Position numbers: made by a program
Shown: one piece after another, positions 30,001 to 36,000 of the stretch
Layout: each line of letters opens with the position of its first letter
Position numbering within the stretch: the stretch's first letter is position 1
NCBI RefSeq assembly: GCF_001677475.2
Contig: NZ_CP015229.1
Source: Escherichia coli
GTDB lineage: Bacteria; Pseudomonadota; Gammaproteobacteria; Enterobacterales; Enterobacteriaceae
Reading direction: 5' to 3' (one strand)
Length of the DNA stretch: 64,000 bases

Positions 30001-33000
30001 CTTTTTTGCGCAAGTGCCTGTATTGTTGCAATAAACTGTGTCCCATCCAGGGTACTAATTGAACCTGAATTATTAAATGATGCACTTAGGCTGGATCCAA
30101 TTTTTATCGTGCCCGACCAGTCAGCCCCTAACTGTTCTAAATCAGTCTTATCAATATCTATTATCCATAAAGATAATTCAATGTGTCGCTTTGGAATATC
30201 GAGTGTAGCTACTAACTTCTCGATAAAATCAACCTGAGATACTGTTCCTTTAACAAGTAAACTGTTGGTATCAGGATATGCAATAATTTGTATATCGTCA
30301 GTCTCTGGCGCTCCAGCTGTCGATATTATTTTCTCTACTTGTAGATCATCATCTTCTTCAGCACCAGGAAAAGGAGGCATACGTGATACGTTTTTTAGTT
30401 GTTGACGACTTGAAATTTCAGAAAGTACGTTAACCCCAGTGCTTTGCTTAATGTTATTATTTAACAATGTCGATAGTACTTTTGCCATGCCAGGAATAAC
30501 TATCTTTTCGCCACGTAATTCATAAGTCCGATCATTAACGAATGTGTTGACCAGATGAATTATTCCTACTTTATTTCGACCGATCTCAATGCCATCGCTG
30601 TTTTGCTCCATCAATTTTGCAGCATTAACGACCAGGTCAACATACACCGGTGGCCCTGAAACATAGAAAGTACCATTGCCTCCCCCTTTAATTTCATAAC
30701 GAGAGTTATACAGACCTGATTTTTTTAAAAAATTATTAAACTCATTCGTCGATACCTTTCTCAGATTAATCAGTGCATTACGCATCTCTGATGAGTCATA
30801 GATATAAATAGCTTTGCCATCATCATACCAAATAAGCCCCATCTGCGCCGACAGGCGTTCAATCAAGGCATAGGGTTCGGTTAAATCAAAATTCCCGCTG
30901 ATCTGTTTCTTCATGGCAAGCTTACTAACTATTGTAGGCTTACCCGCATATGATGAAACCGTTTCAAAAAAACTACGTAGATTTTCTTTATTTGCTACGT
31001 ATCCATTCGCTGTTGCGGCATATGCACCAGGAGTCAATAATCCATTAAAAATGCATAAGGCTGAAATTAATATAATAGTAATACGTAATTTTATTTTCAT
31101 AACTTTTTACATAGTTCTCTCGGTGTTTTTCCTAACCGGCTTTTTACTTCGGCTGAAAAGTGTGATGAGGATGAGTAGCCATATTTATGCGCAATAGTTG
31201 TCATATCACTGTTTCCTTCAATGATTTCCAACACGGCTCTGGCAACTCTCCAGCCACATAATTCCGTTTTAACTTTACCACCCAATGCATAACTACATAA
31301 ACGGCGAAAATGTGAATACGATACGCCGTAAAGCTCACCAAGATCATAGAGTGAAGTCTGTATGAGCGATTGCGATAATAAATAGCGAACCAGTTTATAG
31401 CATTCTGTTTTTCTTAGATGCTGAAACAGAATTTCATTAATATTATCGCTGCTCAGATAAGTGGCTAAAAACCAGGCTTCACTTGCAACTTTACTGAATA
31501 GCACAACTTCTGATGCAAAGGGCAAGGCATCAGCAAACAACTCATGGTGTTCCCTTTCCACACTCCCCGTTGATTCATCAATAAAAGCTAATAATTTACT
31601 CAGGATATCAATGCGAAGTGGATGATAAATTACTTTCCCTGCAGTTACCTCAATTTGGCTTCGGTCAATGAGCAGTAATATGTCTTCCACTACCATTAAT
31701 TTTTGATGGTTATTACCAATCGTAATAACAAGGGTTACATCCTTGTTTTCATTTCCCCGTAAGAACCACATTTCAGGGTCCAGTAGGGTTAACTTCTGTC
31801 CTTGAAGCAAAACATTCATTGGAAGTAACAGCCCTTCTTCAATCATGTTTCATCTCCTTATTCCATATTCTCATTCTCCATAAACTTGCAATAAAAACAT
31901 GATTAAAAAGTGATGATTCCTATTTATAAAATAATGATTTTGTTATGAGTGAATAGCTATCAGCCACTTACAGTAGTAAGTCATCCTGCCCATATACAGA
32001 ATTGCAACTGTTGATATGTTTTACTTAAACATACCCCGTATTTCTTATAACACTTGTTTGGTGACTATTTTCAATAAAAATCATATTTGTTAGTTACACA
32101 TTAACGCACTGCGAGTGTTTTGTTACTCCCCGCATATATTTTATTCTCTTTTTCGATTCTATTTTTCTTAATCGTTCATATAATTTTCTTGTTAGTCAGA
32201 TTTACGAATCATGAGACTTATGATGGATGGAATGAGGCTAAGCGGCCAGGTCAACCCTGTAATTACTGCAGCAAACAACCGATATGTTACTTTTTCTTCC
32301 GAGAAGATAAATATTAAGGTCGATGTCACAACCAGACCTATCAGGTAAGCTAACAGTAATTTATTGATCACTTTTACCTCCCTTACGATTTCTCTTTGAG
32401 CGGTCCTTTTAATCCAGGACCGCCTCATTATGAAAACTATTTAATTCCCTCATCATTGATAAGATTGGACATTTCTTTCAACATAAGAGTCATTGAGGCT
32501 TTCGACCAGTTTAGCGGAATGATAGGGCTTGGCGCTTCATGCAAAGTTCCTGACTTGTGGATATAGTTATAGCTTTCGGGAAGTGCCATTTCAGGTACGC
32601 TCCTGCCATTTGCACCAATCATATTCTCGCCTGTTATTTGGGCCAATGATCTATTCATAAATTGCACTGAGTCATTCAAATATTCTTCTTTTCTTGATTC
32701 TTTATAAACAATTGCTGCTGATTTTGCATACCATGAGTCAAAAAACCATTCTGCTTCTGTTGATGGAATGAAGCTCTTTTCTCTTTTCGCATGTGAATTT
32801 TCATCAGTATCAGTTTTAATATCATTGAACCAAAAATTTGCCGACTGATAATTATCCTTCTCGTATCTTTTTATACCATACGGACCTGCTAGTTTTTTAA
32901 CTATTTTTAGAACTTGCTCTTTTCTTCTGGTGTTTATCTTTGAAAGATTTGCAGGATAAATAACATTAAGTAAGGCCGCATCAGCTTCTCTGTAATGTTT

Positions 33001-36000
33001 ATCTTTTTCCAGATAACCAGGGGATTCTCCCCCTAAATCAAGCTGTAGCGTTATTCTTTCATACCCTTTATCTATGAGATGGTTCAACCTCGTTGTTGAA
33101 AGAGTTTCATCCAGTTCATTGGCTTTAGCTTCGCGTAGTAAATCAGAAATAAAAAAAGAGTCTTTCTTCGAGAGTAAGTTCGACAAACGTTCCAGTCCCG
33201 AGGTCACCAGTGCAACGGAAGATGTGTTTAATCGGGCATCTTCTTCCCACGCTCCAGAATCTTCCATAACATAGAAATTGGCTTTATCCAGATAAGCAAC
33301 CAACAGCGCAATCGATTTTAATCGGTCACCTTTTTCCCAGTCTTCAGCGTTAATAGTACCAGTGTCGATTGCTTGTATAAGGAGATCAAGATAAAGACCT
33401 AAAGCATCATTTTGTTTATGGTTCCACAGCTGCGGCTTGCCTTCTTCCTGCACATCTGCCATCACGGGGGAGTTGCTGTCAAATCGGATATGTACAGCAT
33501 TCATTTGCCCAGGAATACCATCCAGTCGTTTTGGGTTGCTAATGACGTCCTGCATCCGCTTAATCTGGTCGGGCGTAGACATATAATCCCACAGAGTGAG
33601 CAGAACCTTTTTTGCGGCTACACTATTTCCCTGATCTGATACTAATGCCATATAGCCCCATAAACTATCCCTCAGCCAGACAGCATCATAGTGGGTTTCT
33701 GCCGCTGTTTTGTCATCTTCGAAAGTAGAAGCAAGAATAAATGTTCCCCAGGGTTTCTCCGTCAACGTTAACTTTCGTGTATTTTCTGTTAATGTTAACA
33801 ATCCTTGAATTTCGTCTTTGGTATAGTGGCTCTTTATTTCATTTTTTAATTTGGCTGAGTGAATCAGAAGACGATAATTAGGATACTTATCTGGATTTAA
33901 CGATAAATAACTTTTATCAGTTGCTGCCCCCGTGGAATTAAGAATGTTAAATACAGATTCACTCGTCACTTCTGCCCCTGTTGCCTGGCATGTGCCGCAT
34001 GAAAATATACCAGCGAGCAGAAGAGTTAATGTAGATTTCCCTTTCATAAAAGATTCCATCAATCGTTTGTTAAAAGCGTAGATAACCACTTATTTAACAA
34101 CTTGAAAATAAGGTATTTTACCTGGGTTGTTACAAATGAATTGCATTGCGTAAACGCTTTTATTTACAAAAAAATGGGGAAGCATTACGGCGATTGCGAA
34201 AAGTCTGAAGCGATTGAATTAAGATAATATAGAAAATCAGATACAACTAAAATGGCAGGTTGATGAGGTGAAGATAAATTGGAGCGGGCGAAGGGAATCG
34301 AACCCTCGTATAGAGCTTGGGAAGCTCTCGTTCTACCATTGAACTACGCCCGCTTCGAGATGCGTAAGGCATTATAAACCTTACGCTCTCCTTAGCAAGT
34401 GCCGCGCTGCTGACTGCTGATTAATTCGCCATCAGCATTTTGGCTTGCTGCCCTGAGGCGGCAAGTAACGTAGCGGATCAATTGCCGTTGCACGGTAACG
34501 AATCTGGAAATGCAGGCGAACAGATGCCGCATCAGTGCTCCCCATAGTGGCGATTTTTTGCCCAGCCTTCACGCTTTGCCCATTATTTACCAGCATCGTG
34601 TCATTATGGGCGTAAGCCGTAATGTAATCTTCACTGTGTTTAATCATGATGAGATTACCGTAGCCACGCAGCTGGTTGCCCACATACACCACCTTTCCTG
34701 CACCCGCGGCGTAAATAGGTGTACCCCGTGGAGCTGAGATATCAATCCCTTTATTGCCGCCATCAGCTGTCGAATACGGCATGATAACTTTCCCTGTCGT
34801 TGGCCATAACCAACAACGTTGCCCTACTGGCGGCCAGGAAGATTTCGGTACCGCTGATGAAGGTGTAACCGATGCGGTTTTGGTCGTTGATTTGATGGTT
34901 GATTTACGTGTACTACTGCTATTTTTCGCCCCACCCAGTTTTAGTTTCTGACCAACTTCAATGGTGTAAGGGGGTGAAATGCCGTTCAGTCGCGCAAGTT
35001 CTTTTACGCTGGTTCCCGTGGTGCGCGAAATACGATATAGCGTATCCCCCCGTTTCACGGTGTAAACGGAGCCGGAATACGTTCCTGTATCGGATGATTT
35101 GCTACCCGAACAGCCCGCCAAAAGCAGACCAACCGATAACAACATCACGATACCCAGAGATTTTTTATTCAGGCGTCCCGCACTCAAAATCTTTCCTCGC
35201 TTAAAAAACAAGACGCCATATCATAGCAGCCAGCCTCTGGATACCCAATCTCTTGCTTCTGGAAAAACGCGGTAATAGAGAAAGAGGTTAATTTCATTTG
35301 GCAAAGGGAAGTATCATCAGCAAAATATTCGCTGCAGAGGTATCGAAGTTCCTGACTTTTACCCTATTTCCATCCTGATGCGTAATAATCCTGATTTATC
35401 ACATTGATTTTATCGCCACTCATATTGATACGTATCACTGTCCCTATTCAGGGTCCTGTTTCGTATCATATCTGTGTTTTTTTAACGTCATCACACTTCC
35501 TTCCTCCCCTAACGCTTATCGTCGTTTCTGGCGTAAATCTTGCCTGCTTAGACTAAATCTTTGCCATAAGAACCAAATGTTCAAATCGAGGGGATTTCTA
35601 TGGAAGCGCGGGAAGCAACCGCTACGGGTGAATCTTGCATGCGCGTCGATGCCATTGCTAAGGTCACCGGGCGGGCACGATATACTGACGATTATGTTAT
35701 GGCGGGCATGTGTTACGCGAAATATGTACGTAGCCCTATCGCACATGGTTATGCCGTAAGTATTAATGATGAACAAGCCAGAAGTTTACCAGGCGTACTG
35801 GCGATTTTTACCTGGGAAGATGTACCTGATATCCCATTCGCTACAGCTGGGCATGCCTGGACACTTGACGAAAACAAGCGGGATACCGCCGATCGCGCAC
35901 TGCTAACTCGCCATGTTCGTCACCATGGTGACGCCGTTGCCATCGTTGTGGCCCGTGATGAACTCACGGCAGAAAAAGCGGCGCAATTGGTCAGCATTGA

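Follow-up and report, generated by a model that had tools for sequence, protein, structure and literature searches.

Two neighbouring genes, pkgA and ECs3735, were analysed in a 64,000-nucleotide stretch of Escherichia coli DNA (assembly GCF_001677475.2, contig NZ_CP015229.1; hereafter, the window). Both lie between eivF and the tRNA gene glyU (Table 1), within a stretch of low guanine-plus-cytosine (GC) content (~31-42%) that extends roughly from 5 kb to 34 kb of the window and marks the island of ETT2, the second type III secretion system of E. coli; past glyU the GC content climbs from about 0.35-0.42 to >0.45. An original prediction, made from the sequence alone, had placed here an intact open reading frame (ORF) of 536-550 aa, encoding a secreted hydrolase similar to those of glycoside hydrolase family 15 (GH15), and a tiny two-helix ORF, regarded as possible island cargo, and neither as a component of the type III secretion system (T3SS). 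The ORF calls (32437-34089) agreed with the former, both genes were found inside the low-GC island adjoining glyU, and the last claim is supported for the structural components of the T3SS. No names had been given in that prediction; both ORFs are already catalogued E. coli genes, one published as pkgA and the other, ECs3735, as a 180-bp ydcX homolog annotated 'inner membrane protein' (PMC3977695). The finding re-identifies two annotated ETT2 genes and, as such, matters little.

Table 1. Features of the pkgA-ECs3735 region (window coordinates).
Feature	Position	Strand	Remarks
pkgA	32437..34047	-	intact, 536 aa, GH15-like (glucoamylase / phosphorylase-kinase D1-like); maximal ORF to GTG at 34089, 550 aa
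Sec-type signal peptide, PkgA residues 1-22	33982..34047	-	lipobox-like IFSC with Cys17 (codon 33997-33999); alternative signal peptidase I site CQA/T after A22
W267-E268-E269, GH15 region-3 'WEE' motif	33241..33249	-	E268, predicted general acid; invariant in 44 homologs
E491 in PESYN motif (GH15 region 5)	32575..32577	-	putative general base; invariant in 44 homologs
Intercistronic RNA hairpin	32397..32427	-	core GCGGUCCU, 8-nt loop, AGGACCGC; starts a few nt past the pkgA stop; no U tail
Small membrane protein of the GhoT/OrtT family, 59 aa (Sakai ortholog: ECs3735)	32192..32371	-	GTG start; GGGAGG Shine-Dalgarno at 32377-32382; PF10753
eivF, InvF-like AraC regulator, 249 aa	31097..31846	-	final T3SS-cluster gene ahead of the pair
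glyU, tRNA-Gly(CCC), island boundary marker	34280..34353	-	ARAGORN; Rfam RF00005, 71.6 bits

In RefSeq E. coli genomes the 1611-nt ortholog of pkgA is labelled 'glycoside hydrolase family 15 protein', its neighbours being 'GhoT/OrtT family toxin', tRNA-Gly and actS, and the window DNA is 96-99% identical to these copies. The best match to positions 31900-34450 among 5426 complete RefSeq E. coli genomes was 99.0% identical (dog isolate 18KM2445); therefore, the lineage of the window has no exact representative among those genomes. The position, between ECs3735 and glyU, is identical to that of the ETT2 gene in strains Sakai (ECs3736 plus ECs3737), 042 (EC042_3075) and K-12 (ygeQ/b2863-b2862). 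In the ETT2 review two entries are listed for Sakai, ECs3736/pkgA (1059 bp, 'phosphorylase kinase and glucoamylase', b2863) and ECs3737 (606 bp, b2862) (PMC3977695); these are the two halves of pkgA, which is frameshifted in O157:H7. RefSeq also flags pkgA as a frameshifted pseudogene in O157:H7 EDL933 (L015:3013-4864), where the adjoining GhoT/OrtT-family gene is intact. In the K-12-type strain NBRC 3301 the pkgA position holds just ygeQ (264 aa) and a 92-aa hypothetical fragment adjoining IS2, as expected from the claim that K-12 keeps only pseudogene fragments here. The pkgA of the window is intact, whereas it is split by a frameshift in O157:H7 and truncated beside IS2 in K-12-type strains. 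Its longest reading begins at a GTG, and an internal ATG (MKGKSTL...) gives the 536-aa form whose numbering is used below.

PkgA has the (alpha/alpha)6-barrel catalytic domain of GH15 (clan GH-L), and the motifs on which a GH15-like hydrolase had been proposed, YDAVWLRD and WEE, were found from residues 120 and 267, respectively. An alignment of 44 homologs, 39-76% identical to PkgA, revealed that R126, D127, W267, E268, E269, R394, Y395, D398, Y400, W406, E491 and W514 are invariant. Regular expressions written for the five classical GH15 regions each gave a single match, in the proper order, both in PkgA and in 39-44 of the homologs: the Y...W.RD, W...Q.D, WEE and RY..D.Y.....W regions are present in 43-44, and the base motif [SP]E[QS][YF][DN]...L[TN]W[SA], which contains E491 in PkgA, in 39. 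Both the fold and the catalytic signature of the original prediction were supported. Searches of the PDB sequences, either with PkgA alone or with a profile of the 44 homologs, detected only phosphorylase kinase (PhK), namely its alpha and beta subunits, and no canonical GH15 enzyme appeared in the profile search at E <= 10. Precomputed GH15 matches on PkgA homologs were often graded weak or faint.

The nearest solved relatives of PkgA by sequence are the D1 domains of PhK alpha and beta (PDB 8JFK). The PhK subunits are eukaryotic, cytosolic, regulatory multi-domain proteins of ~1100-1200 residues, whereas PkgA is a single-domain, bacterial, exported protein with a ~80-residue N-terminal extension. 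Identity to the characterised GH15 enzymes (5Z3A, 9JU0, the bacterial and fungal glucoamylases 1LF6 and 3EQA, and the glucodextranase 1ULV) is only 12-16%, and PkgA, unlike them, has no large N-terminal beta-sandwich or starch-binding domains. The entry 5Z3A is labelled only 'Glycosidase' or 'GH15-related protein' and is presumably the isomaltose glucohydrolase of Kribbella flavida; 9JU0 is a dextran dextrinase, which we take to come from Gluconobacter.

One important question is whether PkgA possesses the catalytic glutamate pair of such enzymes. The motif around E491 resembles SEQ[YF]D with L[TN]WS after it, and it occupies the Glu400 position of a reference sequence that we take to be Aspergillus niger glucoamylase (it reproduces the published numbering W52, R54, D55, E179 and E400), and on this comparison E491 would be the general base. 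The candidate acid, E268, aligned in a hidden Markov model (HMM) alignment with Glu185 of PhK alpha, named as a catalytic glutamate (PMC10978961). The first member of the expected pair was thereby located by alignment, and the second by its motif. Several results weigh against E491 as the base or against PkgA as an active GH15-type enzyme. When the family profile was compared by hhalign with the same glucoamylase, the probability was 3.7%, and region 4 was placed correctly, with the base glutamate in another register. The Pfam PF00723 match to PkgA was weak (independent E-value 1.8e-5, 24.3 bits, model positions 17-309 of 427), and no NCBIfam model came near its cutoff for either protein, PkgA scoring 14.7 bits against TIGR01577 (cutoff 820.7). 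In addition, PhK alpha showed no detectable activity on maltose, isomaltose or glycogen, though its D1 site looks intact (PMC10978961), so the substrate of the PkgA subfamily cannot be read from the fold. A glucan or glycogen-like polymer, as originally suggested, is a plausible substrate of PkgA.

The silence of the PhK D1 alpha site, together with a sequence match that is better to PhK than to any glucoamylase, would also suit a PkgA that is a catalytically silent carbohydrate-binding or scaffold protein of the PhK D1 type, the small ORF being then a decaying hitch-hiker without present function. Against the first part of this explanation, all 44 homologs, which come from several phyla, keep the glutamates assigned as acid and base as well as the sugar-binding residues, as an active enzyme predicts; the second part is weighed below, with the selection data.

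The N-terminus of PkgA, MKGKSTLTLLLAGIFSCGTCQA, resembles a signal peptide, with a basic n-region and an 11-residue hydrophobic core; in the structural model the predicted local distance difference test (pLDDT) of residues 1-23 was <50. A PROSITE-style lipobox regular expression matched IFSC at Cys17, and an AXA-type site was found after A22 as well. The predicted signal peptide or lipobox was therefore upheld as a Sec-type signal that is present and a lipobox that is possible. Cys17 is kept in the E. albertii ortholog, in VLAC, yet the strict lipobox expression was not matched there. Most Gram-negative homologs carry signal-peptide-like N-termini, and five have lipoboxes, which are clear in several Bdellovibrionales-type homologs; family members from Clostridiales and Bifidobacterium have no signal. 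The Yersinia orthologs speak against lipidation, because they have a plain signal peptide without the Cys and look like signal peptidase I substrates. From these sequence features PkgA would be a Sec-exported, probably lipid-anchored protein that faces the periplasm or resides in the outer membrane, where anchoring is possible.

The pkgA DNA was found at a coverage of at least 80% in 2968 of the 5426 complete genomes, and the toxin region (the small gene) in 1324. Many E. coli genomes match the window from 32424 onward, a point inside the intercistronic hairpin and 12 nt past the pkgA stop, which corresponds to a common ETT2 deletion isoform. In strain UTME-8 (L056:2382-2514) a truncated eivJ remnant abuts a pkgA annotated as intact (536 aa), the deletion having removed part of eivJ, ECs3728, eivI, eivC, eivA, eivE, eivG, eivF and the GhoT-like gene. 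Beyond Enterobacterales, PkgA homologs occur in Commensalibacter, Planctomycetota, Elusimicrobiota, Synergistaceae, Clostridiales, Mycoplasmataceae (Mollicutes), Saccharibacteria, Bifidobacterium and Bdellovibrionales. The scan of genome contigs gave no Escherichia or Yersinia loci, and the enterobacterial contexts were obtained from exact-protein look-ups. As a separate observation, the PkgA-like GH15 subfamily (L018-L052) is concentrated in gut- or host-associated lineages, the carriers including insect Commensalibacter, termite-gut Elusimicrobiota, Planctomycetota, Synergistaceae and Clostridiales Family XIII, and metagenome-assembled genomes of Mycoplasmataceae/Ureaplasma; it is present in Bdellovibrionales and Oligoflexia too. 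In Commensalibacter the PkgA-like gene adjoins an EamA transporter gene and a GH32 gene.

The localization and distribution data bear on a published idea, in which ETT2 would inject PkgA as a type III effector into host cells, to act there on glycogen metabolism (PMC2808357; PMC3977695). The idea is attributed to Pallen 2003, which is cited in the genome paper of enteroaggregative E. coli 042 for the statement that EC042_3075 has glucoamylase homology and was 'tentatively identified as a potential ETT2 effector' (PMC2808357). It accords with the place of pkgA at the end of the T3SS cluster and with the eukaryotic origin of the PhK D1 domains, and the sole observation that favours it is a recurrent linkage to T3SS genes of the Salmonella pathogenicity island 1 (SPI-1) type in two loci, L053 and L054. 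In the former (L053:1-10185) prgH, two needle-family genes, prgK (YscJ) and orgA immediately adjoin the gene of the PkgA homolog P0004 (65% identical), whose other flank carries a ParA/SopB-HTH partition pair along with a SopD/pentapeptide effector-like gene, and the whole looks like a SPI-1-type T3SS on a plasmid-like element; in the latter the homolog is near an InvH gene. However, type III effectors have an N-terminus without a Sec signal, and that of PkgA is of the Sec/lipoprotein type, which would send the protein to the periplasm and not to the T3SS. The family is also widespread in T3SS-free bacteria, including Gram-positives and Mollicutes, pkgA is intact in many E. coli strains whose ETT2 export genes are deleted or frameshifted, and the loci of Y. 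enterocolitica, Commensalibacter and others have no T3SS neighbours. We therefore consider an injected effector very unlikely. Since pkgA is intact where the segment from eivJ to the toxin gene has been deleted, is commoner than the toxin region, and has homologs in T3SS-free phyla, PkgA most likely works independently of the type III machine.

The maximal ORF of the second gene (32192-32428) encodes 78 aa and is separated by 8 nt (32429-32436) from the pkgA stop. The 78-aa two-helix ORF of the original prediction held as regards the ORF, its spacing and its two hydrophobic segments; its length did not, the conserved form being 59 aa. The start was assigned to the GTG at 32371 because this codon is preceded by GGGAGG, whereas the upstream ATG has no Shine-Dalgarno sequence; because the gene is 180 nt long both in RefSeq ('GhoT/OrtT family toxin', WP_001305821.1) and in the ETT2 gene list; because the E. 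albertii ortholog begins one codon past the aligned GTG and has stops in its upstream frame; and because the 19 extra codons of the longer form overlap the stable hairpin. The 78-aa reading is, on this sequence evidence, an over-extension, and older annotations (e.g. strain 042, 78 aa) used the longer, non-conserved start. No substantial difference was found from ECs3735/WP_001305821.1, the same 180-nt gene between eivF and pkgA.

Pfam PF10753 (Toxin_GhoT_OrtT) covers residues 23-65 of the 78-aa ORF (E 3.6e-11). This match and the RefSeq label indicate that the protein, left as an anonymous two-helix protein in the original prediction, belongs to the GhoT/OrtT membrane-toxin family. Its size (~57 aa in the family) and two predicted transmembrane helices are those of PF10753 members, and its two hydrophobic stretches are in line with the pair of transmembrane domains reported for OrtT. 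Identity of the 59-aa form is 37% with K-12 GhoT, 24% with OrtT and 60% with its E. albertii counterpart, with 12 invariant positions in the full-length alignment with GhoT and OrtT. Like these 57-59-aa proteins it carries the TWP[LM]S motif; it differs in having Val in place of GhoT Phe38 and a short basic C-terminal tail, IRKSD. Upstream of the gene lie a GH15 gene and then a hairpin, instead of ghoS as at GhoT. When overproduced, GhoT and OrtT damage membranes, lower ATP and lyse cells, and the F38R mutation abolishes the toxicity of GhoT (PMC4344625). By analogy, toxicity of the 59-aa peptide is plausible, the Val at the Phe38 position being a point against it.

A tblastn search of the whole window with K-12 GhoS gave a best E of 0.024, at 4367-4465, ~28 kb away, and no antitoxin-candidate ORF of at least 20 aa was found between eivF and pkgA. 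With neither a GhoS homolog nor a candidate small ORF nearby, the small gene is not part of a GhoTS (type V) system and resembles the orphan OrtT. PkgA as the antitoxin of the peptide was rejected as well, given the frameshifted pkgA and intact toxin gene of EDL933.

Between the pkgA stop and the GTG of the 59-aa gene there are 65 nt, which contain a stable hairpin; its centroid structure had an energy of -18.2 kcal/mol, with z -2.9 against shuffles (86-nt stretch). In all six lineages that have the peptide gene directly downstream (E. coli, E. albertii, three Y. enterocolitica loci and one Enterobacter-like locus) a hairpin of unrelated sequence lies just past the GH15 stop. The Yersinia and Enterobacter hairpins carry a terminator-like U tail, which is missing in E. 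coli and E. albertii; for E. coli, this counts against a role in termination. The hairpin probably restricts the small gene to an expression level well under that of pkgA.

The distribution of the pair was analysed through relatives of the 59-aa peptide. A word-indexed homolog search retrieved only Escherichia sequences, whereas searching 1.84 billion representative proteins exhaustively yielded only 12 relatives at E <= 1e-3, the Yersinia ones among them. The closest outside Escherichia, P0203 and P0204, carry Y. enterocolitica labels or cluster with that species; they are 42% identical to the peptide in the multiple alignment, and their genes lie ~100 nt downstream of a 540/541-aa GH15 gene whose product is 59-62% identical to PkgA. 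A search with a peptide HMM uncovered further copies. In the third GH15 allele of Y. enterocolitica (L008, 7706-7879) the downstream GhoT-like copy has an in-frame TAG at codon 27, with MSGITIVIMIYFTGTIKTSIFIYFLF before and EKSSYKILSAVFIGMTWILSLIPAFLFSLL after the stop, and is either a pseudogene or dependent on read-through. An uncalled 57-aa copy lies downstream of the GH15 gene in an Enterobacter ludwigii-like locus (L055), and in L054 (2513-5799) a GhoT-like gene is located ~850 nt upstream of the GH15 gene, beside an InvH-family gene, IS66 fragments and a fimbrial usher operon. The last locus is the second link of the pair to SPI-1-type T3SS genes outside Escherichia. No GhoT-like peptide was found beside the GH15 homolog in L053, L013, Commensalibacter or any of the 35 loci from other phyla. 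Judged from these loci, the two genes look like a unit, passed on or relocated jointly within Enterobacterales, and the adjacency of GH15 and GhoT-like genes in several enterobacteria is a modestly new point.

This adjacency raises the question of whether the two genes form one functional module, in which the GhoT-like peptide, made by read-through of the hairpin under strong pkgA transcription, would function as a pore or release factor resembling a holin, or else as a coupled brake on growth, and aid the release or positioning of the glycosidase. The adjacency persists at identities with the E. coli pair of only 36-44% for the toxin and 54-62% for the GH15 protein, and it spans distinct genomic settings (L016, L017 and L008 of Y. 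enterocolitica, the Enterobacter-like L055, and L054); where the toxin is directly downstream, order and orientation are constant and a hairpin always lies between. The GH15-linked peptides share GLTWPLSL, against G[IA]TWPMS[LF] in GhoT and OrtT, and the lytic effect of overproduced GhoT/OrtT would suit a release function. However, pkgA is found in far more genomes than the toxin region, EDL933 has a frameshifted pkgA and an intact toxin gene, and Y. enterocolitica L008 has the reverse, an intact GH15 gene and an in-frame stop in the toxin; the genes are, therefore, not mutually dependent. Given this independent persistence, PkgA is not an essential antitoxin, and a strict model of an enzyme with its release factor becomes less likely. 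The toxin is also absent from L053 and the loci of other phyla, PkgA has its own Sec signal, and a pore in the inner membrane would not take PkgA past the outer one. We regard such a module as unlikely, and give equally little weight to its broader form, a mobile two-gene unit with an attenuator hairpin, in which the peptide is a dedicated accessory to the glycosidase (a release or activation factor, or a switch between glycan scavenging and growth arrest). If this were true, the GLTWPLSL branch would have an accessory role and would not be a free-standing toxin.

Selection on both genes was estimated by comparison with E. albertii (L006). In the small gene, 32 differences fell on about 42 synonymous sites and 30 on about 132 nonsynonymous sites; the resulting ratio of nonsynonymous to synonymous proportions (pN/pS), 0.30, indicates that its frame is under purifying selection. 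The pN/pS was 0.21 for pkgA, 0.10-0.12 for eivF and eivG, and 0.04-0.05 for xdhA and xdhB, so that pkgA and the toxin gene had the highest values among the genes compared. In the same comparison (window 29397-34047), the proportion of synonymous differences was higher in the island genes (0.62-0.76) than in xdhA/xdhB, core genes on the flank (0.42-0.54). The decay implied by a silent PkgA with a functionless companion would be in agreement with values above those of the neighbouring T3SS genes and with the frequent loss or breakage of both genes in E. coli. Nevertheless, with pN well below pS, both genes are clearly under purifying selection, and of the seven adjacent loci five retain an open, conserved toxin frame. 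Taking into account also the invariant catalytic residues, we think it improbable, and more so than the module, that PkgA is silent and the small ORF decaying.

Regarding the surroundings, the eivF ortholog is labelled 'helix-turn-helix domain-containing protein' in RefSeq, and E. albertii eivF matches Pfam HTH_18/HTH_AraC; the gene is ECs3734 in the ETT2 review (PMC3977695). Rfam models at E <= 1 gave nothing beyond the tRNA over 31500-34600, and PADLOC defence models gave zero matches. In a promoter and terminator scan the number of sites was not above that in shuffles; consequently, no promoter is claimed for either gene.

With moderate confidence, we favour the reading that PkgA is an exported, possibly outer-membrane-anchored GH15-type alpha-glycosidase with an extracytoplasmic, ETT2-independent function, and that the second gene encodes an OrtT-like orphan membrane toxin, both being frequently lost island cargo. 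Under this reading, PkgA would be exported by Sec, probably lipid-anchored, and would most likely be an inverting, exo-acting enzyme that uses E268 as acid and E491 as base on some extracytoplasmic alpha-glucoside or glucan. By homology, the 59-aa peptide would enter the inner membrane as a two-helix hairpin and, when abundant, would dissipate membrane integrity, proton-motive force and ATP. The RNA hairpin would keep the small gene low relative to pkgA, and would be a true terminator in the Yersinia and Enterobacter loci.

The Sec/lipoprotein signal of PkgA, the intact pkgA of strains with a deleted T3SS, and the homologs of T3SS-free bacteria argue against the long-standing speculation on a host-glycogen effector. 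The recurring adjacency and the hairpin provide a testable lead on the role of a third, unstudied GhoT/OrtT paralog. The glucoamylase-like domains of PhK are enigmatic; PkgA gives them a tractable bacterial relative, and finding its substrate could inform the role of those domains.

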